A stretch of DNA of 64,000 bases from an uncultured Spirochaetota bacterium. GTDB lineage: Bacteria; Spirochaetota; UBA4802; UBA5550. The stretch lies in contig CAWHAA010000002.1 in NCBI GenBank assembly GCA_963827275.1, positions 276,566 through 340,565 of the forward strand, read 5' to 3'. The translations under genes and the position numbers were made by a program. A model generated the notes under the pieces. It saw only the letters and a list, made by a program, of their open reading frames with translations, had not been told where the DNA came from and ran no database searches. This document shows positions 46,484-64,000 of the stretch, one piece after another; positions within the stretch are counted from its first letter, which is position 1; each line of letters opens with the position of its first letter.

Positions 46484-48586
46484 CTATACGATAAGCTTCA
46501 CGATCTCTATCTTTTTCTCCTTGCCCTTGACCTCGATGGCCGGGCAGACCTGGTGGCGGTACCTGTTCTTGACCTGGCTGAACAGGTGCCGCGACACGAT
46601 GATTTCACCCGCCAGCGCGGAGGAACAGAGCCGTGACGTCAGGTTGACGGTGTCCCCGACGCTGGTAAAATCCATCCTGGAGCTTGAGCCTATATTCCCC
46701 ACCACGACGTCCCCGGAGTGGACCCCGATGCCGATCTCGAACACGGGCAGGTTTTTCGCCGTCCGCGTCCTGTTCGCCTTCACGACTTCGGTCATTATTT
46801 CGATCGCGACGGAAACCGCGCGGTCGGCCTTGGTGTCCCCGGAAAAGTGGGCCATGATCTGGTCGCCCACGTAATCGTCGATGTCCCCCAGGGCTTTCTT
46901 GATTATCCTGGACTGCAGCTCGAGATAGAAATTCAGGATTTCAACGACGGTTTCAGGCTTTTCCCTTTCGGAAAACGAGGTGAAGCCGCGTATGTCCGAA
47001 AATATGAACGCGAAATTCTTCCTGCCGGTGACCCCGAGGTCGATGCTGCCGCCGGAGGACGAGCTGTGCTTCTCGATCATGCTCCTGGTCGACCGCGATA
47101 CGTACTTCTCGAGGTGGTATTTCTTTTTGATTTCGCCGATCATGTAGTTGGTGATGTCGCCGAGCCGTCCGATCTCGTCGTTCGCCGCTATGTCGATCTT
47201 TTCGTCGAGGTTCCCCTTGCTGACCGACAGCGCCCAGTCCTCGAGCTTTTTCAGGTTCTTCACGTTGTGGTTGAGTACGAAAAAAATGACGAAGCCGCTC
47301 ATCAGGGTGATCGCCAGCGCGATGGAGACGACCTGCCTGATGTTCCGCTGCGACGACTGCTTGATGATGTCCACGTTGAAGACGATGCCGAGCGCGCCGA
47401 GTTTGCGGCAGGCGTCGGCGCGGACATACATCGTCTTGAAGTTCGCGATTATCGCGTCGTCGATCTCCTTTGCCTTCGCGGACGCGTCCTCGATATAGGC
47501 GGCGTTTTTCTTTTCCTTCAGGTCGAAGAGCCACCTTTCTTTCCACATCCACGCTTCCTTCGCGGGGATCACCCTGTTCCGCAGCTTCATGCAGTGGTGC
47601 AGGAGGGACAGGAAAAGAAAATCGGCGTCATTTTCCCTCGTTACCTGCGCGGGGATGGCCCTGTTTTTTTGCGGGGGAGCGGCGGCGGTTTTTTTCTTCT
47701 TCGCGGGCTCATCGCCTCCGCCGAGTATCTCCCGGTACTTGTTTGTCAGGTATAAATAGATCTGGGCCTTCCTTTTCAGGCCGGCGGTGTGATATTCGTC
47801 GAACAGGCGGTCGAAATCGTTCAGGATGCTGATGATGTCCCCGTCACGGAGGAACAGGGGATAGGTTATGGCGCGGTACCTGGCTGTCTTTTTTTTGCGC
47901 TTCGTTTTGTCCCATGCCTCATTGGTGTAGTCATACGATAAGAGCTTTTCTTTCTCCTGCAGCAGGCCCTGCTTGATGTAGGGCGGTATGTCCCTGCGGT
48001 AATAGTCCTGCTTCAGCGTGCTGAACTTCACCCTCCCGAACTCGTTGGTCAGCACGATCTTCACGATATCATCGTTGTAGCTGATGAAATTTTTTGATTC
48101 GCGCTCTATGATCTCGTATTTCGTGGCGATCTCCTCTTTCGAGGTCTCTATGTCCTTGTCAAGGTAGAACTCGGCGGGGCCGGCCAGTATGCGCGTGAGC
48201 GCGATCGCCTTCGCGTTCTTCTCTTCCTCCACGAGCTTCCGGTTGTTGAGGTAAATGGTTATGGTGAGGGCCGCTATTATTACGATGATCACCAGCATCA
48301 GCAGGGCGAAGACCCGCGCGCGCAGGCCGAACCATACCTCGCGGATGTTCCCGCCCATTTCGCTTACCAGCTTGTTCTTCTTGAAGAAAAAATGCAGGAT
48401 GCGTTTTAACAAGGATTGGTTGCCGTTTTTCAAGGTATGCGGCCTCTCAGAATGTTTTAGTGTGTGAAACAGCGAACTATCCAGCCCCGTGCGGCCGGGC
48501 TGCAGCTCGATGCATTGTATTGCAACAAGCAGTGATAGTGCAAAAAGAAAAAGCAAGTGATATTTAGCAGTTTCTTTTGCTGGCAT
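46484..48586 (-). CDS. Membrane adenylate/guanylate cyclase with HAMP domain
   Basis: DEIGRL HAMP, FSDIRGFT, YVGDQIMA, GIGVHSG, GDTVNLTSRL. Confidence 0.9.
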   Translation of the reverse strand: MPAKETAKYHLLFLFALSLLVAIQCIELQPGRTGLDSSLFHTLKHSERPHTLKNGNQSLLKRILHFFFKKNKLVSEMGGNIREVWFGLRARVFALLMLVIIVIIAALTITIYLNNRKLVEEEKNAKAIALTRILAGPAEFYLDKDIETSKEEIATKYEIIERESKNFISYNDDIVKIVLTNEFGRVKFSTLKQDYYRRDIPPYIKQGLLQEKEKLLSYDYTNEAWDKTKRKKKTARYRAITYPLFLRDGDIISILNDFDRLFDEYHTAGLKRKAQIYLYLTNKYREILGGGDEPAKKKKTAAAPPQKNRAIPAQVTRENDADFLFLSLLHHCMKLRNRVIPAKEAWMWKERWLFDLKEKKNAAYIEDASAKAKEIDDAIIANFKTMYVRADACRKLGALGIVFNVDIIKQSSQRNIRQVVSIALAITLMSGFVIFFVLNHNVKNLKKLEDWALSVSKGNLDEKIDIAANDEIGRLGDITNYMIGEIKKKYHLEKYVSRSTRSMIEKHSSSSGGSIDLGVTGRKNFAFIFSDIRGFTSFSEREKPETVVEILNFYLELQSRIIKKALGDIDDYVGDQIMAHFSGDTKADRAVSVAIEIMTEVVKANRTRTAKNLPVFEIGIGVHSGDVVVGNIGSSSRMDFTSVGDTVNLTSRLCSSALAGEIIVSRHLFSQVKNRYRHQVCPAIEVKGKEKKIEIVKLIV

Positions 48587-49055
48587 TTCATTTGCCCTGT
48601 ATGGCTTTCTGCGCGGCCGGCATGGGCTGAACCTGCACCCCGCGGATTTACCGACGATGCCTCTGAATTACACAACGAAGGAGTGATCTATCTCTCCAAT
48701 ATTCAATAGTGCTCGCACAATGCTTCAGTCGGCCTGTGCCGTCGGACCTGTATTCTTACAGGTATATAGTCCAAATAAAATGAATAAATAATTAAAAAAG
48801 ACTATTTATTCTATAGACGACGGCAGACAAAAAATCCTGTTCTGTCCCTGGTTTGCCGGGACCCGGGTATTTTTTGTTAAATAATATATCAGGATTTATA
48901 AATATTGTTGAATCCAGGCTTAAAGAAGGCTATGTTTAAATAAATTCCGGATGGACGGATTTTAAACATTATAAGTGAAATATTACGTTCAGATGCATGT
49001 AACCCGAAACATAAAAATTCAAGGTGAACAATAAAGATCAGGGGAGGATTGTACC

Positions 49056-50535
49056 GTGTTACGCTCAATGAAAAATATAAAAAAGCATTCCGTTCTTCTT
49101 ACCATTGTTTTTTTTGTATTTATCTGTACCTCTTGTGAGGAGCAAAAGTCAATGTCCTCACTCCTGGGTATTACAGGTGCAAATAATGCAGAAAATGAAA
49201 GCACTAACTGACAATGGGAGCAATGATACAGGCACTGGTGCAATCACCGGGAGCCAGACCGTCATTTATACCGCTGTTACTGAAGATAATGTCGAGTTGA
49301 AACTTATGCGGTATCGTCCGTCTACTGACGTCCCATTTAATGAAAAGCGTCAGCCCGTTCTCCTGCTTGGCGGAATCTTCATGAACAATGACGAGTTCAC
49401 GCCTCATACCACGGAACTGATGAAGGAAAAATATTCAGAGATGAAGCTCCCTGACAACATGGCCGCCTGGGCCGTGGGTGATCCATATATCGCGAATGAC
49501 CATATGATGTATTACAGTCTTGGCTACTATCTCTGGAAAAAGGGCTTCGATCCCTGGTTCGGCAACTACCGGGGCACGGGACGGGGTGAAATGAAAAGCG
49601 GGAGCCCCACGGACATATCGACCCTGGACGTACCCGGCTGCCTCGATGTGCCGGCGTTTGTAAAAAAAGTCACGGCGGTCACGGGCCTCAAGCCGTTCAT
49701 CGGCGGCCACAGCACCGGCGCCCTTAACTGCTATGTGTACCTGCAGGGCGCATATCTGGATCCCGCCGAAGTGATAAAAGGGAGAACCTCGAAACCTAAA
49801 TATATTCCCCATGTGAGAGTAAACGCCGAGCTTGCAAAAGAGAGAAACAACAGCGTCAAGGGATACATCGGCATAGACCCCGCGGTCGCGCCGCCGCTTC
49901 CCGCGGAACTTGATGCGTACTGGGTATGGTGGCTGCTGGACGGGCCGATTACGCTCCCGATGGATGCCATGATGGAGGCGCTGGAAGTTAAATCCGGGTA
50001 CACCGGAATGGAGTTCAGCGAAATTTGTGATTATCTGTTCAATGGCCTTGACAACCTGGCCATCCAGTACCCGGACTCGGTTTTTCAATATCTCCAGTTC
50101 TTCAAGACAGGAAGCGTGGACCCCTTCGTCCTTGATTATTTCATCAGATACGCGGTTTCAAACGGCTACCTGAGGATGATCGCCCAGTATGCTGACTGGG
50201 GTGTTAATCTGGTAATGAGGGAAGGATATAACAACGGCCCGGAAAATGCCGGTTCTAACGTCAGGCCAAAAGAGAGAACAGACGGCGACGGTTTCTACTA
50301 CTATGAGGACCATATGAGCAATATAACGGCGCCCATGATCTGCCTGCTGTCCGAAGCAAACGGACTGGTGGCGACCGAGCTCGTAACCAGGTACCTGATT
50401 GACTTGAAGACTCCGCACAGCCTGGACTATGTTTACGAGGTTCCCGGTACCGCCCATGCCGATCTGCCGATCGGGTACGCTGCGCCGCGCTTGATGTTCC
50501 CCGCGATGAGCAACTGGCTTGACCAGGTAAAATAA
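49056..50535 (+). CDS. Lipoprotein alpha/beta hydrolase, +1 frameshift near 49209
   Basis: GGGGAGG RBS, signal ...VFICTSC, nucleophile elbow GHSTG, C-terminal GTAHAD. Confidence 0.75.
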
Positions 50536-50556
50536 CATCACGGACGGATCCTTTGT

Positions 50557-50593
50557 AAAAAAAAGCCCCTGATATAATCAGGGGCTTTTCTGC
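50557..50593. repeat. 37-bp direct repeat copy 1 (terminator hairpin / putative att core)
   Basis: AAAAAAAAGCCCCTGATATAATCAGGGGCTTTTCTGC identical to 60943-60979. Confidence 0.95.
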
Positions 50594-50690
50594 TTTGTCT
50601 GGGAATGGGCCCGGGGTTCGTGACAATGGATGCGCAAGGTACCGTTGCTTTATGCTTTCCCGCGCCTGCATGGCCGGGCAAGATGAATCA

Positions 50691-52709
50691 TCATAGTGCC
50701 CCTCCAAGAAAGCCGGTATCACCGGAACTGCCGGTCAGTACGCCGTTTGACAGTCCCCCGGCGCCGCCGGCGCCATGCGCCAGCTGAGTAGCGGATAGTA
50801 TGGCTCCCGATGACCAGCCATGTTTATATATCGCAAAAGAAGGGCCACCGGCGCCGCCGCCGCCAGGGCCACCGGCGCCGCCTTTTCCTCCATTACCACC
50901 ATTGCCGCCGGCACCGACTTCATCAGTAGCATTGTCGCCGCCGTTACCAGCGTTGCCGCCGCTGCCGCCGTTGCCGCCGTTACCGCCATTGCCGCCGCTG
51001 CCGCCATTGCCGCTTATGATTATACACTTAGCAACAGTGACGGTCGATTCGATCAGGAGGACTCCGAATGAAGCGCCGCCGCCGCCGCCGCAGATGCCGC
51101 CATTGCCGCCGCTGCCGCCGCCACCGCCGCCGCCGCCACCGTTGCCTTCACCTGCAAGATAATAGAATTCAGCTGCCCAGAATTGGCCGCCGCCGCCGCC
51201 ACCGCCGCCGCCACCGTTGCCCGGATTGCCTTTTCCTCCATTAGCTCCTATAGAAGAGATCCAAAGATTACCGGTTATGGCACCTGATGATCCGCCTGAC
51301 CCATTGGAGCCGGGAGATCCGTCCGTTCCATTGCTTCCGTGAAACCCATCGGTACCGGGGTTTATTGTCAACCCGCCGGCACCTCCCGGAGTACCATTGA
51401 TTCCCGGACTGCCATCACCGCCATCCATTGAGTCCCCCAATAAACACCATCCCCCAAAACCTCCATTACCGCCGTTTCTTCCAGCAGCGGAAGTTCCGCC
51501 ATCTCCTCCGTAAACATTAGCATCGGCAAGTGGGCCGATATCAGCTATCCCGCTGCCGCCCGTACTCCCGTTGCCTCCCGGCGCTCCTTCCGAACCGGTT
51601 GATCCATCGTGGCCCGGCGCGCCGTTCCCGGCCGTAATCCTGCAGTCCCTCAGCGTTACGGTGCTGTTAATAAGGCGCACGCCGTAGGAGCCGCCGCCGT
51701 AATTTGCGGCGTTCGAGCTGGCGATGGAAAAGCCGTCGATGATGCAATCGCCGACGCCGCTGCCGTCAAGGGCGATAGTGCCGCCCTGTATCTTGACCTG
51801 GTACGACGCCGTGTCGCGCTCCCAGGTCCCGTGAAGAAACCCGCCGTACATGCTCACCCCGCTCGCCAGGGACACGCTTTCAGCATAGTCCCCGCCGCTC
51901 ACGTACACGTCAGAGCCGGATGCCAGGGCCGCGGTCACTGCGGCCTGGATCGTTTTTTTGGGCGCGGCCCGGTCGGTGCCGTCATTGGCGTCGTCGCCGC
52001 TGACCGCGACATATATGCCGGCACCGGCCTCTTCCATGACAAAGATATACACGCGGTCCGGGAGGCTGTTTCCGGAGCCGTCATCCACCTGAAGATCGTA
52101 CGCGATCGTGCACACTTCCGACGGGGCGGTAAAGCTGGGGCTGACGCCCGTGAGCGTGCCCGTGCCGATCCTCGGCCCGTGTATCTGGGTCCAGGTGCAG
52201 GCGAGGGGATCGTTTTCGGGATCGCTGCTGCCGCTCCCGTCCAGGGTTATCGTGGCGTTGATGCTCACCTCCTGGTCGGTCCCGGCGTCGGCCGCTGGCC
52301 CGTTATTTTCGGATACGTATACGGTCGCCAGGTCGGCAATCGTGCGTGACCCGTCATTCACGGTGAGCCTGACTTCATACGTCCCTTCCGCGTCAAAGGT
52401 AAGCGTGGTCACGGCCGCGGCAGGATCGGCACATGAGGCAGTGCTCCCCGCGGGCTGATGCACCACTTCCCATAAATAGGTGAGGGCGTCCCCGTCGGGA
52501 TCGTAGCTCGCGGACCCGTCGAGACCGGCGCTTCCGGCGGCGCCGCCGTACAGGTTCGCGTTCTGGTCGGCGCCGGCGTCGGCAACCGGCGCGCGGTTGG
52601 TGGATTTCAGTATCAGTCCCTGCCTGCTGTTTTCATCGTCGCATGCCGCAACGATACCGCATGCGGTGAGTAGTGCGATACAGGCGAGATGTGTGCAGAG
52701 CTTCTTCAT
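50691..52709 (-). CDS. Polyglycine-rich surface lipoprotein C (2x PKD, DUF1565/beta-helix-like, PGRS-like)
   Basis: IVAAC lipobox, PVADAG...LDGS.S.DP.GD.L.Y.W PKD motifs, YV...GDDANDGT...PKKTIQAA, Gly-rich C-half. Confidence 0.82.
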
Positions 52710-52723
52710 GTCGTTCTCCTCTG

Positions 52724-54726
52724 TCAGTCGCTTGCCCCGGGGTACAGGTCGGCTTCGCCGGGATCGCCTGCGCCGCCCCCCGATCCGCCCCCGGCGCCGC
52801 CGCTTCCTCCGGCGCCGCACGTCAGGGTATTTCCGTTCAGGTATATTATTGAAAGCAATCCGTATTTATATATCGCGAACGATGGGCCGCCCGCGCCGCC
52901 GCCGCCGTCGCCCCCTGCGCCGCCGTTCCCGCCCGTGCCGCCGTCTCCCGCCGGGTCCTGCTCGTCATTGTTTCTGTCGCCGCCGTTCCCGCCCGCGCCG
53001 CCGAAGCCGCCGTAACCGCCGTTCCCGCCCGCGCCGCCGTTCCCGCCGCTGCCGCTGGTAATGACGCAATTCTCTACCGCAACGCTTGATTCGCTCAGGA
53101 AGAGGCCGAAGGACCCGCCGCCGCCCTGGCCGCCCCCGCCGCCGGTTCCCCCCGCGCCTCCCGCGCCGCCGCCCCCCCCGCCGTTGCCTTTATAAAAAAC
53201 GCCGTCTATTCCCCAGGTGCCGCTTCCGCCGCCGCCCCCGCCGCCGTTGCCGGGGATGCCGTCCGTTCCATCGACCCCGGAAGATGATACCCAGAGGCTG
53301 TTTTTTACTATACCGGACGAACCGCCCGCGCCGTCGGCGCCGTCAGCGCCGTTCGATCCGTTGCCGCCGTCATGGCCCGGGTGAACGCCCATTGCGCCGC
53401 CGCTGCCGCCCGGGGTCCCTATCCGCCCTTCGCCGCCCGGCTGCCCCGCGTACACTTCGCCGAATCCGCCGGTCCCGCCCCAGCCGCCGCTTCTTCCGAT
53501 ATCAGATGCGCCCCCGGCCCCACCGACGCCGATCGTCACCGGGTCCTCGGAGTACCTGTCGCTGCTCCCCCATCCGCCGGCGGACCCGGCGGTGCCGTTC
53601 GCGGCGCGCGCTGCGACGTCCGTTCCATCGATTCCACCGGCGCCGTTTCCCGCGGTTATGATGCAGTCTTTCAGCGTAACGCTGCTGTATTTCAGGTGCA
53701 CGCCGCAGGAGCTTTCTCCCGGTATTATGGCGTTCGTGCTGGTGATGGTAAGGCCGTCAATCACGACTTCGCCGACGCCGTTTCCGTCAAGGGCGATGGT
53801 GCCTCCCTGTATAGACGTCTGATATGATGCCCTGTCGCGCTCCCAGGTCCCGTGCAGAAAGCCGCCGTATATGCTCACCCGGTTCGCCAGAGCCACGCTT
53901 TCGGCATAGTCCCCGTCGCTCACGTACAGGTCAAAGCCTGACGCCCGGGCCGCGGTCACCGCCGCCTGGATGGTTTTTTTGGGTGCGGACCGGTCGGTGC
54001 CCTCGTTGGCATCGTCGCCAAGCAGGGATGAGACATATATGCCGGCCCCGGTCTTTTCCATGACATAGATATACACCCGGTCGGGCAGGCTGTTGCCCCC
54101 GCCGTCGTTTACCTGCAGGTCGAAGACGAGCGTGCAGACTTCGGACGGGGCGGTAAAGGTCGGGGCGGCGCCGGAGAGCGTGCCCGTGCCGATGGCCGGC
54201 CCGGTTATCTGGGTCCAGGTGTAGGTGAGGGCGCTGTTTTCGGGATCGGCGCTGCCGCTCCCGTCAAGGGCCACGAGGTCGCCACGGCCCGCCTCCAGGT
54301 CGGGTCCCGCGTCAGCGGTCGGTCCCTGGTTGTCGGCAACATGCACGGTCACCAGGTCGGACGCCGCGCGCAGGCCGTAACTCACGGTAAGTTTTATTTC
54401 ATACGTTCCGATTGCGTCAAAGGTGAACAGGGTCGTAACCGCGGCCGGGTCGGCAAAAGAGACCGTGCTTCCCGCGGGCTGATATACCACTTCCCATGAA
54501 TAGGCGAGGGCGTCCCCGTCAGGATTATAGCTCCCGGTCCCGTCGAGATACGAACTTCCGCTGCTCCCGGAGGTCAGATACGCGGCCTGATCGGCCCCGG
54601 CGTCGGCGACGGGGCACGTTTGAACATATCAATTAAAAATCCGGTCTTTTTGTTTTCACCGCATGCGGAAAGAATGGCACAGGCGGTGATCGCGGCGATA
54701 ATGGAAATGGTTGTTCTCTGCTTCAT
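52724..54726 (-). CDS. Polyglycine-rich surface lipoprotein B, -1 frameshift near 54612
   Basis: ILSAC lipobox; adding one base at KRAP restores PVADAG; same architecture as paralogs. Confidence 0.8.
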
Positions 54727-54742
54727 CGCGTCATTTCCCGCT

Positions 54743-56755
54743 TCAGTTGCTGTCCCCATACTCCCCATCCTTGCCGGGGTTCCCCGCTGATGCCCCTCCC
54801 GTTCCTCCCGTCCCGGGGATTACCCTGGTGACGGTTATTATCACCGATGACGATACGCTGCTTTTGTATATCGCGAAGGAAGGGCCGCCCGCGCCGCCGC
54901 CGCCGCTGCCCCCGTTCTTGCCATAGCCTCCCGCGCCGCCGTTACCCCCGGCGCCAATCTCATCCGTTCCGTAGGTGGCGCCGGTGCCGCCACCGCCGCC
55001 TGCCGCTCCCGCGCCGCCGCCGCCTCCGGAACCGCCGTTGCCGCCGTTGCCGCTCGTGATATCGCACTCGGTGACGTAGACGAAAGAACCGATCAGGAAA
55101 AGGCCGAGAGACGCGCCGCCGCCGGTTCCGCCGACGCCGCCAACGCCGCCCCCGCCGCCCCCACCGCCGCTGCCGCCGCCGTTGCCGGTGCCGTCAGAAG
55201 AAAACGCGGTGTCAACGACATCCTGGCCGCTGCCGCCCCCGCCGCCCCCGCCGCCGTTGCCGGCATCGCCGTCCGCTCCATCGACTCCGGAGGATGACAC
55301 CCAGAGGTTGTTTACAACAGAGCCCGAGGAACCGCCCGCTCCGTTTGCGCCGATGCTCGCGCCGTCAAGCCCGTTTGCGCCATTGCTCCCCGGCTCGCCC
55401 GTATAGCACCACACTGAATCACATACGCCTCCCAAGCCACCCGCAGACCCGACAAGTCCCACACCGCCATCATCGCCGTCATCACTGCTGTATCCTCCGT
55501 TGCCTCCCTTGCCGCCCGTCCTTGGCACCTGGGTCGTGTAGAGAGCGCCGATGTTGCCGCCTTCTCCGCCGGCATACCCCAAGCCGTTTCTATGATGATC
55601 TTTAGACCCGTCCTGGCCGTCTGTTCCTCTGTCACCGGCACGGCCGTTCGCTCCGTTGGCACCTTCCTGGCCCGGTGCCCCGTTACCGGACGCAATAATG
55701 CAGCCTTTGATCTCCGCGCTGCTGTTGATCAGGCGCACTCCGTATGAGCCTGTTCCTGCCATGGTTGCGTTCGCGCTGAAGATGCTGAGCCCGTCAAGGA
55801 CGACGCCGTGTACGCCGTTACCGTCAACCGCAATGGTGCCGCCCCGTATTCTGCTCTCAAAGGAGGCCGTATTGCGCACCCATGTGCCGGGATCAAAGCC
55901 GCCGTAGATGCCAACCCCGCTCGCCAGGGTCACGCTTTCGTCATACTCGCCCGCGCTCACGTACACGTCGCAGCCCAGCTCCAGGCCCGCGATGACCGCG
56001 GCCTGGACATGACGTTTGGGCAGAGATCGGTCAGTCCCCTCGTTGGCGTCGTTACCGGTTGTCGCGACAAAGATGCCGGCGCCTGGCTTTATACTGACAT
56101 ATATATACACGCGGTCCGGCAGGCTGTTTCCGGAGCCGTCATCCACCTGAAGATCGTACGCGATCGTGCACACTTCAGACGGGGCGGTAAAGCTGGGGTT
56201 GACGCCCGTGAGCGTGCCCGTGCCGATCCTCGGCCCGTGTATCTGGGTCCAGGTATAGGTGAGGGGGTCGCCTTCGGGATCGGTGCTGCCGCTCCCGTCC
56301 AGCATCACGATGTCGCCGGAGCCCACCTCCTGCCCGGCTCCCGCTTCCGCCATGGGCCCCTGGTTGATTGAGACATTGATGGTCACCATGTCCGACGCCT
56401 TGTGCGAGCCGTCATTCACGGTGAGCATGATTTCGTAGGTCCCGACCGTGTCAAAGGTGAACAGGGTCGTGACCGCGGAAGGGTCGGCAAATGAGGCGGC
56501 GCTTCCCGCGGGTTGATATACCATTTCCCATGTATAGGCAAGGTCCCCTCCGTCGGGGTCCGAGCTCCCCGACCCGTTGAGATCGACGCTGCCGGCGTAC
56601 AGGTACACGTTCTGGTCGTCGCCGGCATCGGCGACCGGCGGCCGGGTCAGAGACCCCACCATCAGTCCATGCCGGTCGCTTTCATAATCGCAAACGGTAA
56701 TGATACTGCACGCCATGATTGCCGCGAACATAGCGAAGTTGTTACGATGTTTCAT
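54743..56755 (-). CDS. Polyglycine-rich surface lipoprotein A
   Basis: IITVC lipobox-like site, 2x PKD, DUF1565-like motif, Gly-rich C-half. Confidence 0.8.
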   Translation of the reverse strand: MKHRNNFAMFAAIMACSIITVCDYESDRHGLMVGSLTRPPVADAGDDQNVYLYAGSVDLNGSGSSDPDGGDLAYTWEMVYQPAGSAASFADPSAVTTLFTFDTVGTYEIMLTVNDGSHKASDMVTINVSINQGPMAEAGAGQEVGSGDIVMLDGSGSTDPEGDPLTYTWTQIHGPRIGTGTLTGVNPSFTAPSEVCTIAYDLQVDDGSGNSLPDRVYIYVSIKPGAGIFVATTGNDANEGTDRSLPKRHVQAAVIAGLELGCDVYVSAGEYDESVTLASGVGIYGGFDPGTWVRNTASFESRIRGGTIAVDGNGVHGVVLDGLSIFSANATMAGTGSYGVRLINSSAEIKGCIIASGNGAPGQEGANGANGRAGDRGTDGQDGSKDHHRNGLGYAGGEGGNIGALYTTQVPRTGGKGGNGGYSSDDGDDGGVGLVGSAGGLGGVCDSVWCYTGEPGSNGANGLDGASIGANGAGGSSGSVVNNLWVSSSGVDGADGDAGNGGGGGGGGSGQDVVDTAFSSDGTGNGGGSGGGGGGGGVGGVGGTGGGASLGLFLIGSFVYVTECDITSGNGGNGGSGGGGGAGAAGGGGGTGATYGTDEIGAGGNGGAGGYGKNGGSGGGGAGGPSFAIYKSSVSSSVIITVTRVIPGTGGTGGASAGNPGKDGEYGDSN

Positions 56756-56778
56756 CGCGCCCATTTCCTTTTTGTGAT

Positions 56779-57666
56779 CTACCTTTCCTGAATATCCTTT
56801 TCCGCTTCTTTCTGTCCGGTAATTTTCGGTTTCTGGGCGTCTTTTGCCGGCGCAGCCTGCTTCTGGAGACTGTTGTCCGGCGCCTGCTGTTCCGTTTTTT
56901 CTTTATCCGGATTTTCCTGCTTCATGGTTTCCTTTTGCGTGGACTGTTGTTTTTTAATCTCCTTTTCCGGAAGCAGCATGAGGTGCCTTTGCAGATTCTG
57001 ATCGCTTTCCTGTTTGACCCTGAATAAAATTCCCACGGACAGATAGCAGTTGAGTGAATTCATGTAATCCAGGTTGTCCTGGGGCGCGGCCCATTCGTAT
57101 GTGAGGCCGCATTCGAAAAAGAAAGACATCAATCTGTTAAAATTGTAGTTCAATCCAAGAACGACGCCCGGAACAAAAAACCGGGGGAAAAAGATATTGC
57201 TGTTCATGCTTGAAAGATTGTTGGGATAATAGAAGGCGGATATGCTGAACCCGGCCCATGCGCGGAATACATTGTTCCGGAAGAACGCAAAGCCGAATGT
57301 ATTTTTAAGGCTCAGTCGAAAGGCATGGCCCTGAGACATGTCGGTCTTGTAATTATATTCCGCCCAGATTATATCAGGCGCTTTCGGATATCTGAATTCA
57401 TCAAATCCCAGCTGCAGCCTGTAGTTGAACAGGTAATCGTCCCCCATGCAGGTGTCGAACACTACACCCGCGCCGATTAAATAATTTGTGCCTTTGAAAT
57501 AGTAATCGATGTAAACGGGCGGCGGTGAGTAAAAATAATATTTTTTTACTCTGGATTCCCCGATGCCGCCGCTGAAATACGCGCCGATACCATGAGCGGA
57601 AAGCGGCGTGGAAAAACTGGTCAGAGCGAGGCAGGTGAGCGCGATTAATAACAGCCTGGTCTTCAA
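56779..57666 (-). CDS. Small outer-membrane beta-barrel protein with Q/K/E-rich tail
   Basis: AAGGAG RBS plus TTG start, signal peptide (LSA), aromatic amphipathic strands ending SVGILF. Confidence 0.7.
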   Translation of the reverse strand: MKTRLLLIALTCLALTSFSTPLSAHGIGAYFSGGIGESRVKKYYFYSPPPVYIDYYFKGTNYLIGAGVVFDTCMGDDYLFNYRLQLGFDEFRYPKAPDIIWAEYNYKTDMSQGHAFRLSLKNTFGFAFFRNNVFRAWAGFSISAFYYPNNLSSMNSNIFFPRFFVPGVVLGLNYNFNRLMSFFFECGLTYEWAAPQDNLDYMNSLNCYLSVGILFRVKQESDQNLQRHLMLLPEKEIKKQQSTQKETMKQENPDKEKTEQQAPDNSLQKQAAPAKDAQKPKITGQKEAEKDIQER

Positions 57667-57937
57667 GATATAGCTCCTTATCTGCGTGAAAAAATGTCAT
57701 CAACGCAAAAGCACGGGTCCGGGATTGAATACGCCAAATTTTCCGTTCCGCCGCATGGTGATGCGTGGTCCCGGTTCCCGGCCATGCGATATAACAACAT
57801 CGGAATTGGATTGCCATCCCGTGACGGACCCCATGACAACATCCCGCGGGAGTCCTGGACATGGAATATGATCACGTAACCATAAAAACATATGTAAATT
57901 TTTAATAAAGAAAATTTTACCGGCGCGGCGGCAGGCC

Positions 57938-57975
57938 GGGAATGAACTGTGCGTCAAGGGGAATGAACTGTGCGT
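57938..57975 (-). promoter_or_regulatory. LytTR-type operator: 17-bp direct repeat with 21-bp period
   Basis: Minus strand ACGCACAGTTCATTCCC twice; core ACAGTTCAT-N12-ACAGTTCAT fits [TA][AC][CA]GTTN[AG][TG]. Confidence 0.85.
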
Positions 57976-57979
57976 GATA

Positions 57980-60838
57980 TTAAATTTTTTTTCTCAGGCT
58001 CTCGAGATATGCCGGGCCAACCGGGAGCTCCGTGTAAACATTGTCGCGGAGGCGTACCCGGTAGCGTCCTGAACGCACGTGGGAGATGCTGTGGACGTAA
58101 TTGATGTTGATGATATGGCTTTTATGGATCCTGAGGAACATGTCCGGCGGGAACCGCTCGATGATCTCCTTCATCATCGCGGGCACCTCGACGTCGCCGG
58201 CGGCGGTGTGTATCACGCTGTTCTTCGAATGCGACGTGATGCGGATGATGTCGCTGAACTTGAAGGAATACGCCCTGTTCCAGCCGCGGATGGTGATGCC
58301 TTCGGCGGTCGATCTCCGTATGTTCCTGAGCTTCAGCATCGTGCCCACTCGCGCGAGGAGCTCCCGTATCCTGAAGGGCTTCACGATGTAATCGTTCGCC
58401 CCGGCATCGAAGGCGGCGTTGATGTCGGCCATCATGTTCTTTGCGGTGAGCATTATCACCGGGAGCTCCTCCGGGGAGCGGCTGGCGCGTATCCTTTTAC
58501 ACACGTCGTACCCTGACATGGCCGGCATCATGATGTCGAGGAGCACCAGGTCGATGGCGTTGTCCCGATCGATGATGTCGAGGGCGCGTATTCCGTCGCT
58601 CGCGGTTTTCACGACACAGCGTTTTGATTCGAAATAGTTCTGTATCACCCGTATGCAGACCGGGTCGTCGTCGACGACGAGAATCACCGGGTTGCCGTCG
58701 AGGGCGACGTCGTACGTCCCGGCCCCCGCCTGCGCTTCGCCCGCCTGCGGCGTGTCGTCCATGCCCCCGATGATGACCGGCTCCGGAACGTCGGGCGCGG
58801 GGCCATTTGAAACGGGCAGGGTGAAGGTGAACACGGAGCCGCCGCCCGCTCCCGGCGCGACAGTAATGGCGCCGTTGTGCAGCTCCACGATCTGCTTCAC
58901 TATGGTGAGCCCCAGGCCCGTGCCCGGATATGCGCGCGTGTCGCCGCCGTCCGCCTGCCGGTACGGCTCGAATATCTTTTCCCTGAATTCGTCCGGGACG
59001 CCGATGCCCGTGTCCGACACGTTGACCTCGATCATCTCTCCTGGCATCGCGTTACAGCCGTTGTCCGGCCGCTGGAGTACCCGCGCGGACAGCTCTATTG
59101 TCCCCCTGTTCGTGAATTTGATCGCGTTGCCGACGAGGTTGCACAGCACCTGCCGTATCCGGTCTTCGTCCGCGTGCGCCGCGGGAGTGCCCGGCGCGAT
59201 GGTGTTTATGATCTTCAGCGACTTTCCCCCGACGAGCGGCAGTGAAAGCTTCACGACCATTTCGCTCAGCGAGTGCAGATCAACGGGCCGCAGGTTCAGG
59301 CTCAGGCCCTCGTCCTGTATCTTCGCCATGTCCAGCAGGTCGTTGACCATGTTCGCCAGACGGTGACCGCTCGCGGCGATGAGGGAGAGGTTTTCGGCCA
59401 CCTTCGGGGTGAGGCCGCCCGCGGCTCCTTCAAGCATGGATTCCGACAGGCCGATCATGCCATGAAGGGGCGTGCGAAGCTCGTGAGAGGTGCTGGCCAG
59501 GAACTGGTCCTTGAGCCGGTCCATTTTCATGAGGGTTATGTTTTTCTCCGCGAGGTCCTCGGACAGCTCCTCCACCGTTTTGAGCGCCCTGGAATACCTC
59601 TGTGATATGATCATGGTAATCACGATACAGTGTATGACCACTCCATACTGGGTAACATTGGTGGTGTCAATCATCCACGACACGTAGAGCAGGTCATTGA
59701 TGCCCCCTATTAACAGCGGGGTAAATCCTGCAAGAAAAATTATCGCATCTTTTCTCCTGTGCACTATGGCTCTGATCAGGACAACTACACTGTAACAAAT
59801 CAAGATGAACATTATGATGAAATAAAATTTCATTATTTGCTCTGCGGTCCTGAAACCGACGGGGATAAGGACGATAAAGAATACTGCTGTTATGATAGTT
59901 ATAAGCTTAAGCAAAAATGGTGAAAAATCATAGGGGAACATCGACCTGATGGTCGTCATGTACATTGAGAAGGCCAGGATCACCGTCAGATAATTGATTA
60001 TGAGGGGATTCCGGGGATATGAAATGCAGCCGGACAGGATTGGGTAATGGTGGTTAAACGTATTTATCGCTATGGCAAGGCAGAATAATCCAAAATAGAG
60101 CGATGAGGCGTCCTGCCTCCTGAAAAAATAGAACAGGATGTTATAAATGGAAGCGAACATCAGCAGGCCGAAAACGATCATTTCTGCCGTATAGTATTGA
60201 AATTTTTTCTGTTCGAGAATTTCTTTATCGTCCAGCAGGATTGAGCTGTCAATGCCCCCCGAATCATAGTCATGGTTAAATACCTGGATGATAATCTCAT
60301 TCATGCCCTTGTTGAGGACGAAGGATGAATATCTTTTATTGTGAATGAAGATGTAATTGTCACGGAATTTCGATGTCCCGCCCACCTTTCCCATTTCATC
60401 CATCAGCGTATTATTGATCCAGAGCGTATACGCTGAATATATGCGGTGAATGGTCAGGGTTTTCGGCCTGGCGTCGGGACCGGCTATGATTGTTAATCGG
60501 TAGGTGGCGCGGCCCTTTCCGGGCAGGATCACGCCATTGACCGGGCGCCCTTCCCACGACCCGGGCACGCGTATAAATCCGCAGCCATTTTTGTCGCCCT
60601 GTGTTGAAAAATCAGACGGGCCCGGAAGGCGGTCCCAGCAGAATTCCCAATCGCCGTCAAGGCGCAGAGACCCGTCCCTTTCGAGGTTCCAGCCCCTGAG
60701 GTCAAGAACGCCTTTCACGGCGACAGGCTTTTTTGTCTTCATGGAGCCGCTGTCACACGAGGACAATGCTGGAAATATTAAAAAGAAAAGAATGGCCGGA
60801 AGCGAAACGATTTTGTTTATCGGGAGGCGCAATCTCAT
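57980..60838 (-). CDS. Hybrid sensor kinase: sugar-binding-like/7TM-DISM, HisKA, HATPase, REC, LytTR
   Basis: LDGDWEF/VPGSW/ATYRL, TM helices, SHELRTPL, NLVGNAIKFT, GTGLGL, VVDD/LLDIMMP/KPF, FLRIHKSHIININYV...LPVG. Confidence 0.9.
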   Translation of the reverse strand: MRLRLPINKIVSLPAILFFLIFPALSSCDSGSMKTKKPVAVKGVLDLRGWNLERDGSLRLDGDWEFCWDRLPGPSDFSTQGDKNGCGFIRVPGSWEGRPVNGVILPGKGRATYRLTIIAGPDARPKTLTIHRIYSAYTLWINNTLMDEMGKVGGTSKFRDNYIFIHNKRYSSFVLNKGMNEIIIQVFNHDYDSGGIDSSILLDDKEILEQKKFQYYTAEMIVFGLLMFASIYNILFYFFRRQDASSLYFGLFCLAIAINTFNHHYPILSGCISYPRNPLIINYLTVILAFSMYMTTIRSMFPYDFSPFLLKLITIITAVFFIVLIPVGFRTAEQIMKFYFIIMFILICYSVVVLIRAIVHRRKDAIIFLAGFTPLLIGGINDLLYVSWMIDTTNVTQYGVVIHCIVITMIISQRYSRALKTVEELSEDLAEKNITLMKMDRLKDQFLASTSHELRTPLHGMIGLSESMLEGAAGGLTPKVAENLSLIAASGHRLANMVNDLLDMAKIQDEGLSLNLRPVDLHSLSEMVVKLSLPLVGGKSLKIINTIAPGTPAAHADEDRIRQVLCNLVGNAIKFTNRGTIELSARVLQRPDNGCNAMPGEMIEVNVSDTGIGVPDEFREKIFEPYRQADGGDTRAYPGTGLGLTIVKQIVELHNGAITVAPGAGGGSVFTFTLPVSNGPAPDVPEPVIIGGMDDTPQAGEAQAGAGTYDVALDGNPVILVVDDDPVCIRVIQNYFESKRCVVKTASDGIRALDIIDRDNAIDLVLLDIMMPAMSGYDVCKRIRASRSPEELPVIMLTAKNMMADINAAFDAGANDYIVKPFRIRELLARVGTMLKLRNIRRSTAEGITIRGWNRAYSFKFSDIIRITSHSKNSVIHTAAGDVEVPAMMKEIIERFPPDMFLRIHKSHIININYVHSISHVRSGRYRVRLRDNVYTELPVGPAYLESLRKKI

Positions 60839-60942
60839 ATGCTGATCAGAATTTCTATATTTCCTGTTGTCAATACATTTCGTTAAAAGTGCGTTCCCGC
60901 TGCTTGTACCTGATTTTTTCAAGATTGTCGGCAAATTCATCA

Positions 60943-60979
60943 AAAAAAAAGCCCCTGATATAATCAGGGGCTTTTCTGC
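60943..60979. repeat. 37-bp direct repeat copy 2 (tRNA terminator)
   Basis: Identical to 50557-50593. Confidence 0.95.
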
Positions 60980-61022
60980 GCGCCCGGCAGGAGTCGAACC
61001 TGCGACCTACGGATTCGTAGTC
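60979..61022 (-). pseudogene. tRNA-Arg(ACG) 3' half only (att-site remnant)
   Basis: GACTACGAATCCGTAGGTCGCAGGTTCGACTCCTGCCGGGCGCG: anticodon loop, T-arm, acceptor 3' strand; no D-arm or 5' acceptor strand upstream. Confidence 0.88.
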
Positions 61023-61328
61023 GATGAATAGCAAGAGGCTTATCATTAGTGGATATTCGTTGCGATATATTATTTTATGTTGCTATGAATATCATTAAAA
61101 AACATACATATTAAACGAAAAATTAATTAAAAAAGGTTCTATTATTGGCGTATGTTGCTATTTGATTTTTTATGTGTTTTTGATTGGTCAATATTTGGTC
61201 AAATGATTTTGGGCATATTACAGGCAAGGATAAAAATATTCTGATTTGCGGGTTATTTATTAGTAAACCCTCTGTAATTTTTTATAGGATATACTCAAAA
61301 TATGAATATTAATTAAAAGGCGGTTTAT

Positions 61329-61763
61329 ATGGGATATGAATTAAAATCACTTTCTTCAGAAAAACGTTGTAAAAAATGCATTAAAGATGGAGACAATACG
61401 ATTAATTGTACTTATTGTCAGGTTGCATTTTTTACGTTCCATGTGCTCGATTGGCGGCCATTATTACTCTTGGCACAGCTGTATGGGTGGCAACCATTCG
61501 GAATTCCGAATCACGTGGGAAATAAAGTTAATGGTTATTGCGGTAATGATTGGGAGATTGTTGAAAGAGAAGATGCCTCTAATTTATCTGATGCTCTGGA
61601 AAAAGCAGTTAATGATCTCCCAGAAAGCAAAACGGTTATTCAACAAGAAAATAATGCAACTTCAAGAGAGGGGTTATTAAAGTATTTTTCTGGAATAGAA
61701 ATGAGGAATATGATAGTGAAGTTTATTGATTTTTGTCGACTCGATGGATTTATTATTTATTAG
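61329..61763 (+). CDS. AT-rich hypothetical protein
   Basis: ORF in low-GC block, CKKC and CTYC pairs near the N-terminus. Confidence 0.6.
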   Translation: MGYELKSLSSEKRCKKCIKDGDNTINCTYCQVAFFTFHVLDWRPLLLLAQLYGWQPFGIPNHVGNKVNGYCGNDWEIVEREDASNLSDALEKAVNDLPESKTVIQQENNATSREGLLKYFSGIEMRNMIVKFIDFCRLDGFIIY

Positions 61764-61808
61764 ATGAGATACGATTATTTATTTACATTTAATACTCAGG
61801 GAAATACA

Positions 61809-63070
61809 CCGCACAATTCCGCCACGCTGGGCAACCGCATACTCAAGCAGGACGGCGAGGCCGGCGTCTGCCTCGTCTGCCACAACGGCAATGTGGCGAC
61901 CGGTTCCAAGGACATCAACTACGCGCTCGACAATTCGGCGTATGTCCATCCGGGTCAAGACTACCAGCGGTCGCCACAAGCCCCAGCGCATGGCCGACGG
62001 CTACATCCGTGAGGACCAGGAGGACCTCGCCAACCGGCACGCCGAGTGCGAGGACTGCCACAACCCCCATGCGGTGTCACCCGGCGTCTCGCCCAACGTG
62101 AAAAGCGGTACGCCGACGACCAATCTCGCCGCGAACGTGCTTAGGGGCACCTGGGGCGTGGAGCCGAACAACTACCGCACGGGCGGCCTGCCGGCCTGGA
62201 CGGTGGCAGCGCAATCCGGCGGGTACACCGAGATCAACAACATCCGGCCCGGGGTCGATTACCAGTACCAGCTCTGCCTCAAGTGCCATTCCTCCTACGC
62301 CTTCGATCTGAGCCCGCCGATGTCGCCCTACAACAATCCGGCTTTGGGCATCGGTCCGGCCGGCAGCTACAATAGCGACCAGGCCAAGGAATTCAACCCC
62401 AACAACGTCTCCTTCCACCCGGTGGTCACCACGGGCAAGAATAACTTTTACAGCGAGGCGATAGGATACGACTACAGTTCTTCGCTGATCGACGGCATGA
62501 CGCCCAACAGCGTGATGGGCTGCTCCGACTGCCACTCGGACAGCCAGAATCCCTCCGGCCTCAAGGGGCCGCACGGCGCGGATTACTGGCCGATCATCTG
62601 GGGGCCTTATACAAAAAATACAGGTATGACAGGCACCCAGAACGATCTGTGCTTCAAGTGCCATGACTGGACAGTCTATGCGGAAGGCGATGCCATTGCA
62701 GCGGCCAACAAAACCGGTTTCCGGGCAGAAACCGGCTCTGGCGGGAATGTTAAAATAAAAAACATGCACATACGTCATGTTGAGGTACGCAATATGCCCT
62801 GCCTCGCCTGTCATGCGGCCGTTCCGCATGGCATGCCGCAACGCGCTTTGCTGGTCTGACGGCCGCGGTGCGTAGCAAGACGCCCGAGCCCTACAATGCG
62901 CAAAGCCAGGTTCCCATCTGCGGTACGGCTCCGGCCTGTTACAAATACGCTTGTGTTGATTCTACCGATTACGGCATCAATTCGAATGTCACCAACGTTA
63001 AGACTATCGTCAGCGGCAACTGGAAGAGAACCGACTGCCATAACGGCTCCGGCATCGGCTCTTGCGCGAG
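61809..63070 (+). CDS. Multiheme cytochrome c, 5'-truncated and frameshifted (near 61952, 62858)
   Basis: CLVCH, CEDCH, CLKCH, CSDCH, CFKCH, CLACH; 3' end uncertain. Confidence 0.8.
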
Positions 63071-63082
63071 GACTGCACTACC

Positions 63083-64000
63083 CATGGTCAGGGGTGGCGG
63101 CGTTGGCTGGCCTCGGCCCGACTGGGGTTGGCGCTGCTCGCGCTGCTGGCACTGGCGGTAGTAGCCGGCGGCACGCTGCCCCAGTTGGGGCGGCTGTCCT
63201 CTGCGGAACTGAACACCTGGCAAACTTCCTGGCCGCTGTTCGCGCAGAGCGCTGCAATGGCTGGGCCTGTCCGGGGTTTACGCTTCGTGGTGGTTCGCCG
63301 TCCTGTGCCTGCTGCTGGTGGTGAACATGACGGCAGCCATGCTGGTGCATGGCTTGCGCATCTTCGCCTGGCTGCGAGGTGAAGCGGAACCCAGTCACCG
63401 CATGGCCGGCGCGGGACCCGCTCCATCCGCGCTCGTCCGGCAGATTGACGCGCAGCAGGGTTCCCTGCTACACCGTGTCGGACTGCTCGGCGTGCCGCTG
63501 CTGCACCTCGGGGTGATCATCCTCATCGCCGGGGCGGCGCTGAACGCTTCCGGCCGCTTTGCCGCCCATCTGGAACTGAGCGAGGGCGAGATCTTCGCCG
63601 GCCAGCCGGACAAGCTGATCGTCGAATCCGAGGGGGATCGCAGCAACCATGCGCCGGCCTTCCGCCTGCGCCTCGACCGGTTGCACGTGGCCATTGGCGA
63701 AGGCAAGCATCTGGCCGAATTGCAGGCAAAGCTCACGGTGCGCGACAATGGGGTCATTTATCATGCCGAAGTGGAGGTCAATCACCCCCTGATGCCGTCG
63801 GCCCTTATTCGGTGTACCTCGACAAGACCTTGGGCCAGACGGCGATTTTCGACCGGCTGCTGACCGACGGGCGGAAATTCCGGTTGCTGATCAATTTCCC
63901 CGTTTCCATCGCGGCCTGGGAAACCGCCGCGCCCTTGCAGCGCGGTGAGATGAGTCGAGCTCGACGGCGTGCCCATTTTTTACCGCATGGCGCTTACACC
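63083..64000 (+). CDS. Cytochrome c biogenesis ResB/Ccs1-like protein, frameshifted, runs off window
   Basis: LAS.RL.LALL...GTLPQ, LGL..VYASWWF, LLHLGVIILIAG, VNHP across frames; start uncertain. Confidence 0.7.

Follow-up and report, generated by a model that had tools for sequence, protein, structure and literature searches.

A recurring spirochaete cassette: a one-piece membrane sensor-regulator, its likely operator and varied cargo

The DNA analysed here (the window) is a stretch of 64,000 nucleotides from an uncultured Spirochaetota bacterium (genome G000, 4.13 Mb in 11 contigs; window at G000:C2:276566-340565), and its subject is a module of five co-oriented minus-strand genes, which encode a hybrid sensor-regulator, a putative beta-barrel and three lipoproteins. 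Relatives, coded by G-numbers, comprised 16 other genomes of the genus and 121 other genomes of the class (122 with G000). The module appears to be one form of a recurring spirochaete cassette, in which the gene of a sensor-regulator is followed directly by a repeat that is likely its own operator; with moderate confidence, the protein can be assigned the role of activating the genes behind it, here those for the predicted barrel and for three lipoproteins predicted to be binding proteins of the surface. The hybrid and barrel genes are 313 bp apart, and the gaps from the barrel gene through the lipoprotein genes measure 23, 16 and 14 bp, matching the figures of an earlier interpretation made from the letters alone (the sequence-only reading).

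The hybrid consists, in this order, of a signal peptide, a GH2_N-like outer domain and 7TMR-DISM_7TM, HisKA, HATPase_c, REC and LytTR domains (Pfam and profile searches); as in hybrid transmembrane transcription regulators, the membrane sensor, both kinase domains, the receiver and a DNA-binding domain reside in one chain. The phospho-motifs are intact (HisKA His452 and REC Asp769), and autophosphorylation followed by phosphotransfer would presumably control DNA binding. The signal peptide ends in a lipobox-like Cys28, and a Cys follows the signal peptide in 53 of 72 hybrid family members according to a crude pattern, which suggests that the sensor family is lipidated. The outer domain matches Glyco_hydro_2_N in 14 of 33 family members (best E 1.4e-6) and its profile matches beta-galactosidases (3bga, E 2.3e-4), rendering a carbohydrate-like ligand plausible; a single-sequence search of the PDB with the sensor domain reached only E 0.072 at best. 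The 7TMR-DISM family has a carbohydrate-sensing role. Fusions of histidine kinase (HK), REC and LytTR account for 83 of the best 120 protein clusters matching the REC-LytTR region, and all 14 taxon-named clusters with this fusion belong to Spirochaetes or Spirochaetota. Within the class, hybrid-type tails (E <= 3.2e-30) are found in 29 of the 122 genomes and in five of seven families. Two split relatives of the hybrid also occur in G000 (C11 33900-30144 and C4 76168-78796), each a 7TM-DISM kinase gene followed by a separate REC-LytTR gene, without the operator of the module.

Right after the hybrid gene, where the sequence-only reading had placed a consensus LytTR site, a perfect 17-bp direct repeat with a 21-bp period begins 4 bp past the stop codon. 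Its two 9-mers with a 12-bp spacer conform to the LytTR direct-repeat layout of two 9-11-bp repeats with an 11-13-bp spacer, as given in the pertinent passages of PMC4847170, and it is the sole match in the genome to the LytTR consensus. When the 110 bp after the stop codon were scored in each hybrid-tail locus fetched (40 loci, which are not all matches), 26 of the 40, the present one included, attained the mark of at least 17/24, which was reached by none of 20 other LytTR genes and by 18 among 20,000 random windows; the controls had been reduced from 22 to 20 by dropping two partial hybrid rows, one of which scored 24. A TTGA follows ten bases after the second 9-mer in 16 of the 26 operator-bearing loci. 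The geometry is thus of the LytTR type, as had been claimed, the operator is specific to the hybrid clade, and co-distribution makes it likely that the repeat is the hybrid's own operator. In G000, it is located downstream of the sensor gene and in front of the cargo. A strict operator pattern, too strict to be informative, retrieved three loci from metagenome contigs, two after a hybrid tail and one orphan before a barrel and a lipoprotein gene. A genome-wide regulon in G000 was considered and rejected: at a threshold of at least 19/24, the scan returned only the module site and one match on C7 that appears to lie inside a gene. Two further repeats were noted on the side: (i) in G004 (L103:9328-10527, contig C30), an orphan operator with TTGACA and no sensor relic precedes an Lcl_C-domain gene, possibly a target in trans; (ii) at a different LytTR gene (G000:C8 at ~534650, L086; G009, L088), the stop codon overlaps with a separate, imperfect repeat, behind which come TTGACA, a promoter-like site and a gene labelled flavodoxin-like by eye.

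The same gene order with the same operator is found in relatives, in line with the co-occurrence postulated earlier. Of the other 16 genomes in the genus, five contain the module, located at unrelated sites and not bounded by the repeats that flank it in G000, and strong lipoprotein homologues (54-63%) stand in tandem in five of these 16. Among the 121 genomes, close barrel orthologues (54-71%) were found at seven loci in six genomes; all seven follow an operator, six are followed in turn by lipoprotein genes, and the seventh is situated at a contig end. The sensor is present upstream of the barrel at four loci (twice in G004, once each in G007 and G016). In G008, G010 and G101, only relics of the sensor's last codons remain before the operator, and an intact hybrid is encoded elsewhere in each genome; the orphan operator of G010 is the same variant as that of its intact hybrid, which is itself sister to a barrel-cargo hybrid. 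The operator stays near-perfect after the sensor has been lost. Further lipoprotein homologues in the class are a fragment (G013), a single close copy (G120) and a distant match (G103), and the closest ones come from records titled uncultured Spirochaetota, Spirochaetes or Leptospirales. In G103 (L184:5567-10596), a different putative barrel precedes two distant beta-helix/Gly-rich lipoproteins, a possibly independent pairing with a weak profile match (E 0.0027).

What follows the operator varies. The combination of genes described in the sequence-only reading is not fixed, as the same sensor and operator precede many other cargoes and the lipoprotein of G120 occurs without barrel or sensor. 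Cargoes include InlB-B-repeat lipoproteins with DUF5122 propellers, He_PIG and lactonase-propeller lipoproteins of 1300-1500 aa, FecR plus fn3-barrel plus a Big_2 lipoprotein, a MACPF lipoprotein, cyclase-like membrane genes and a second hybrid. Ig-like stalks (Flg_new, He_PIG, Big_2) were detected in 7 of 18 cargo proteins scanned, the other domains being DUF5122, MACPF, FecR, Lcl_C and cyclase. On one contig of G039, four sensor-operator-lipoprotein units are arranged in tandem (L138-L139, G039:C17:1-28000). In a tree of 33 hybrids, the sensors with barrel cargo form two groups apart from each other, one of which has a sister with another cargo; this fits an exchange of cargo, probably through recombination close to the conserved LytTR tail and the operator. 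Three observations on individual cargoes may be added: the lipoproteins of G039 (890-1270 aa) are almost identical at the N-terminus and have InlB-repeat-like motifs in common; a MACPF-domain lipoprotein is encoded downstream of a hybrid-operator cassette in G014 (L100:8531-10174); and at L140 (G119:C3) and L143 (G101:C157), two hybrids occur in tandem with the operator of the first before the second, possibly a signalling cascade.

In the module itself, all three lipoproteins start with a signal peptide that includes a conserved Cys, carry two PKD domains and are rich in Gly over their C-terminal two-thirds. The second gene is frameshifted in the assembly; contigs of four independent runs from four studies were used as a read check, and since all four contain one extra base near 54613, the frameshift is most likely an assembly error. 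The same base led us to discard a pseudogene or a phase-variable gene; a strain-specific mutation retains a slight chance. The tip (448 aa) was modelled by AlphaFold2 from an alignment of 35 sequences with a pLDDT of 91.3 and a pTM of 0.80, yielding beta-strand rungs separated by long segments without helix or strand. From start to end of the tip, ~160-200 of the 448 residues align to pectin-lyase-like beta-helices (best match 6kfn, Z 14.5, root-mean-square deviation (rmsd) 2.3, 158 aligned), and the remainder holds 11 GXX or poly-G runs of 10-25 residues each. Across 20 homologues, identity at non-Gly positions amounts to 57-68% in the PKD domains and beta-helix versus 22-25% in the Gly-rich inserts, and six tip loops vary in length as well as in sequence in 17-20 of the 20 homologues aligned, the Gly framework being invariant. 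The tip is accordingly predicted, on the basis of the model, to form a beta-helix of the pectin-lyase type that is broken up by Gly-rich inserts carrying hypervariable loops. The diversification of the lipoproteins, proposed from the letters alone, is borne out as variation concentrated in loops between Gly motifs; the DUF1565-like domain proposed with it received no Pfam call at E<=0.01, and the beta-helix is backed by structure prediction instead. Foldseek with the full-length lipoprotein model returned Ig domains only. In the lipoprotein tree, paralogues group partly by genome and partly by position, consistent with both duplication and inheritance of triplets. Homologous tips with other N-terminal parts extend beyond spirochaetes to records of Myxococcota, Acidobacteriota and Bacteroidota; in one Bacteroidota record (L028), large genes in tandem encode the same beta-helix start together with the Gly-rich motifs, which suggests that the tip domain also occurs in secreted Bacteroidota proteins.

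The barrel candidate displays a ~200-aa domain with conserved Tyr/Pro-rich loops and a charged C-terminal tail in alignments. A small outer-membrane barrel of this kind would have ~8 amphipathic strands behind a signal peptide. The candidate is tentatively identified as such by ESM Atlas neighbours at 0.96 together with this alignment pattern, Pfam and NCBIfam searches giving no match, and predictions of a barrel-lipoprotein complex scored 0.00 in two runs and lend such a complex no support. A 22-nt hairpin look-alike within its gene (57363-57384) was dismissed as coincidence, because it encodes a loop conserved in barrel orthologues.

These components could also be assembled into a minimal polysaccharide-utilisation unit, consisting of a glycan sensor, beta-helix enzymes or glycan-capturing lipoproteins, and a barrel importing small products, a reading that we consider fairly unlikely. 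It draws on the best structural matches of the tip, which are polysaccharide lyases (PL) of families PL31 and PL9, a glycoside hydrolase and pectin methylesterases (PME; Z 13-14.5), on the GH2_N-like sensor domain and on the sugar responses of Bacteroides hybrid regulators, as reported in part of PMC10269533. The tip model indeed has the right-handed parallel beta-helix of PL9, PL31 and PME proteins, but a common fold alone shows no function. The enzymes of these families have conserved catalytic and metal-binding residues in the groove. In 15 distant homologues, conserved polar tip residues are few (D236, N238, Y265, Y271, W292, R294, S337, Y338, S549, S626), and no Lys/Asp catalytic cluster is apparent among them, as judged without residue-level superposition. 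Open reading frames (ORFs) and Pfam disclose no TonB-dependent transporter, SusD or recognised carbohydrate-active enzyme (CAZyme) in the module, and the alternative cargoes are Ig-repeat and beta-propeller lipoproteins, not CAZymes.

A different question is posed by the two perfect 37-bp direct repeats, which enclose the five genes exactly as first described and are the only copies in the genome, allowing up to 5 mismatches over a 29-bp core. The right repeat runs on into the 3' half of tRNA-Arg(ACG), the 5' half of which forms the start of contig C4; ARAGORN found no whole tRNA-Arg(ACG) in the genome. The left repeat is positioned to terminate both the operon and a convergent hydrolase gene. 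In G009, an intact tRNA-Arg and a near-identical terminator stand directly before the adenylate cyclase gene (equivalent to 46484-48586 in G000), which is the kind of empty site in a relative that had been anticipated. The displaced tRNA half at the right repeat is the attachment-site scar of a right-hand cytochrome-c island that is barely covered in the four runs; in three of them, loose ends at 61022 continue into the intact tRNA. A third, degenerate tRNA half (48606-48648) marks the scar of an older insertion carrying the hydrolase gene. With these two scars and its own repeats, the module is one of three layers at a tRNA hotspot.

From the same repeats, the sequence-only reading had derived a self-contained mobile island, with the repeats as recombination ends and the barrel exporting or anchoring the lipoproteins; we regard this as improbable. 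The repeats are perfect and unique in the genome, the hairpin within them (11-bp arms, 7-bp spacer) has a geometry like that of tyrosine-recombinase cores, G009 offers an empty site, and the module is patchy and found at different sites. However, the four relatives in which both flanks are available (G007, G008, G010, G016) have the same genes among unrelated neighbours, with no tRNA in the fetched stretches and no flank repeat >11 bp. The same genes lacking the repeats in relatives had been named beforehand as an outcome that would refute the sequence-only reading, and the island is not supported as a property of the system. The repeats are tRNA end and terminator rather than a system-specific recombination site, for which they had been considered. 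A duplication at the tRNA 3' end and an empty site are as in integrase islands, but no recombinase was found between the repeats among ORFs and Pfam matches (four PF00589 matches reside on other contigs); the four runs cover the module at even depth, and the 15 of 54 joints listed for the read contigs include no excision joint. As to export, barrel and lipoproteins are tightly linked, and the barrel-lipoprotein pairing of G103, weak as its match is, points in the same direction; against this, lipoprotein homologues exist without a barrel, and a ~200-aa barrel domain is small for a translocon of folded proteins. The repeats date this insertion and do not define the system. The 37-bp duplication may have arisen when a recombinase provided in trans crossed over within the hairpin, or it may be what is left of a longer attachment site. 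As a whole, the sequence-only reading is partly supported.

The region itself is not confined to one sample: near-identical DNA is present in 20 of the 24 runs listed, from 12 studies, and the 18 runs with at least half of the words are bioreactor, manure, sediment, freshwater, soil, wastewater and wetland metagenomes, with no RNA run among those listed as holding the region. Around the module, 61023-64000 is a strain-specific island in tRNA-Arg(ACG), with an AT-rich start, a 144-aa ORF without Pfam family, a multiheme cytochrome c and downstream ORFs; it is nearly absent from all four read sets, and the window ends with the contig. The older layer (48606-50556) consists of lower-GC DNA with a 476-aa alpha/beta-hydrolase-like gene (weak Hydrolase_4 match), which has no other copy in the genome and low cover in run X9. 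Across the genus, tRNA-Arg(ACG) is an island hotspot with variable DNA downstream, and in three relatives an intact tRNA and a second match to its 3' half are 11-34 kb apart (L045/L060 in G013, L053 in G010, L047/L065 in G012).

Table 1. Positions of the module genes, the operator and the flanking elements in the window
Feature	Position	Strand	Basis
One-piece membrane sensor-regulator, 952 aa	57980..60838	-	Pfam, motifs, N-terminus, sensor-domain profiles
LytTR-type operator, perfect 17-bp direct repeat, 21-bp period	57938..57975	-	Repeat search, consensus scan
Predicted small outer-membrane beta-barrel, OMP_b-brl/DUF2715-like, 295 aa	56779-57666	-	ESM Atlas, alignments, orthologues
Lipoprotein 1, 670 aa	54743-56755	-	Pfam, signal peptide Cys22, structure prediction, alignments
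Lipoprotein 2, frameshift near 54613 in assembly	52724-54726	-	ORFs, read contigs
Lipoprotein 3, 672 aa, 58% identical to lipoprotein 1	50691-52709	-	Pfam, signal peptide, ORFs
Right 37-bp repeat, last bases of tRNA-Arg(ACG) and terminator hairpin	60943-60979	-	Repeat search
Left 37-bp repeat, second copy of tRNA end and terminator	50557-50593	-	Repeat search
Displaced 3' half of tRNA-Arg(ACG), anticodon arm onward	60978-61022	-	tRNA search, relatives, reads
Degenerate (79%) older tRNA-Arg 3' half, just before adenylate cyclase gene	48606-48648	-	Context, outside module

A reading in which the repeat behind the hybrid serves autoregulation or is in decay, and the genes after it are passengers, either constitutive or silent, with paralogues that are plain tandem duplicates of the same specificity, seems very improbable: the lacking -35 element of the G000 operator, the sensors lost or split in five relatives (lost from the locus in G008, G010 and G101, split in G007 and G016) and the further hybrid that follows the operator in G101 and G119 would suit it, but the operator is placed before the cargo and not upstream of the sensor, it persists where the sensor is gone, none of the three lipoprotein frames is interrupted when the base supported by the reads is included, and the loops diverge on an invariant Gly framework.

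Several points nevertheless weigh against an operator that activates surface-binding cargo. The G000 copy has no TTGA at 10 bp downstream, and as no indel is listed in the reads at the operator or -35, the promoter of this operon may be weak or decaying. Among the 40 hybrid loci, 14 remain below the mark, one of them (G016) owing to a 22-bp spacing; the operator consensus was derived from the same loci and kin are not independent, although the fixed position after the stop codon makes chance unlikely. Both G007 and G016 have a split hybrid gene, and the GH2_N match of the G000 hybrid stays under the Pfam cut-off (18.1 versus 28 bits). Not all cargo is lipoprotein, since cyclase-like and other membrane genes follow several operators; conversely, lipoprotein homologues stand without barrel or sensor in G120 and at four distant loci with short flanks. 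The tree behind the proposed cargo exchange is a short search with SH-aLRT support only, and a polyglycine-II geometry of the inserts is inferred from GXX periodicity, high pLDDT and absent DSSP structure.

If the hybrid does activate the cargo through this operator, signalling, transcription, surface display and adhesion could be connected in the following manner: A periplasmic ligand, probably a carbohydrate or an envelope fragment, would bind to the GH2_N-like domain, upon which the kinase would phosphorylate its own REC domain by His-to-Asp transfer within the membrane-bound hybrid. Two LytTR domains may then bind to the repeats, which would lie immediately before a sigma-70 promoter, and bring in RNA polymerase to transcribe barrel and lipoprotein genes as one operon. 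The lipoproteins would be lipid-anchored, with the two PKD domains as a stalk and a beta-helix displaying a polyglycine-II lattice, the variable loops of which would set binding specificity without catalysis; the three of them may be binding proteins on stalks, each with its own specificity. The most probable role of the barrel is that of a surface partner or receptor expressed along with them, not that of a protein translocon. In G000, the cassette would have entered at the tRNA-Arg(ACG) hotspot and thereby produced the second copy of the tRNA terminator. A bolder version is possible but doubtful: plug-and-play surface recognition, in which a lipid-anchored sensor carries operator and promoter on its own 3' end, the conserved LytTR tail and operator serve as the hinge at which adhesin cargo is swapped by recombination, and one type of cargo is the cellular equivalent of the gp38 polyglycine sandwich, with antibody-like tips whose hypervariable loops grip other cells or particles when the signal is present.

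There is nothing unusual in the island framing as such. As in tRNA-targeted islands, a tRNA 3' half is displaced, a relative has an empty site, and the DNA downstream of tRNA-Arg(ACG) is variable; unlike in those, the duplication around the module comprises only the last bases of the tRNA and the terminator, there is no integrase, and other copies are located away from tRNAs. The tips resemble pectin-lyase-like beta-helix proteins (the alginate lyase 6kfn, Pel9A 1ru4 and the adhesin PfbA 3zpp) in their predicted core fold (Z 12-14.5 over 158-181 residues), whereas ~250 Gly-rich residues between rungs align to none of these, and no catalytic set was detected.

For these Gly-rich parts, the counterpart is gp38 of Salmonella phage S16 and T-even phages (PDB 6F45), in which, according to the sections of PMC6851490 and bioRxiv 10.1101/2023.11.25.568672 on its structure, turns of a beta-helix extend into a polyglycine sandwich with hypervariable loops. 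The predicted model and the alignments follow this design, combining a beta-helix with glycine-rich inserts, long poly-G runs and hypervariable segments in between, but here on a cellular lipoprotein with a PKD stalk, a ~450-aa tip, several inserts and a beta-helix of the pectin-lyase type. As no homology was detected, the likeness is one of analogy: tblastn of the tip against 50,697 phage records gave no match, neither 6F45 nor the gp38, ALK and snow-flea folds are among the structural matches listed, and one poor BFVD row is named Gp38 (TM 0.12, rmsd 32.6). By this analogy, the tip loops may determine receptor binding. A cellular protein family appears to graft a polyglycine lattice with variable loops onto a beta-helix, and because few natural polyglycine bundles are described in the literature searched, the tip family could be a new binding scaffold.

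The operator has counterparts in the LytTR direct-repeat sites of YpdB, HdrR/BrsR of the LytTR regulatory systems (LRS) and AgrA-type regulators, for which the relevant portions of PMC4847170 and PMC6193735 give 9-bp repeats, a 12-bp spacer and 10 bp to the -35 element in activators; the two 9-11-bp direct repeats, the spacer and, in relatives, the 10 bp before -35 are the same. In LRS, as far as described in that part of PMC6193735, a LytTR regulator is paired with a membrane inhibitor, and autoregulatory repeats are situated upstream of their own operon. The module has neither a membrane inhibitor nor a peptide signal gene; its regulator is fused to its own kinase and membrane-bound, and the repeats, the sole such site in the genome, are downstream of the gene, at the regulator's stop codon before variable cargo.

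The most extensive comparison is with Bacteroides. Hybrid two-component systems (HTCS) of polysaccharide-utilisation loci (PUL) have an AraC-type output and a beta-propeller/Y_Y_Y sensor, and the loci contain a SusC/SusD pair with CAZymes. The hybrid described here shares with Bacteroides hybrid transmembrane regulators, as treated in part of PMC10269533, the combination of sensor, HisKA, HATPase, REC and DNA-binding domain in one chain beside probable target genes. It differs in its LytTR instead of AraC output, in its sensor, which is 7TM-DISM plus GH2_N-like (Pfam finds LytTR and 7TMR-DISM_7TM), and in the lipobox-like Cys; ORFs and Pfam reveal no SusC/SusD pair in the locus. The claim that no described system has this combination stands for the hybrid family, the operator and the lipoprotein fold, for which no description was found in the literature searched (with little subscription content covered), but the hybrid architecture has been catalogued once: among 23 LytTR rows in File S3, the portion of PMC10269533 that bears on it, one reads 7TMR-DISMED2-7TM-HisKA-HATPase-REC-LytTR, with 7TMR-DISMED2 in place of the GH2_N-like domain. 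The cassette, order-wide in an uncultured spirochaete lineage and provided with a testable predicted operator, extends hybrid two-component regulators to LytTR output, and is best regarded as an undescribed variant of hybrid two-component regulation with unusual cargo.

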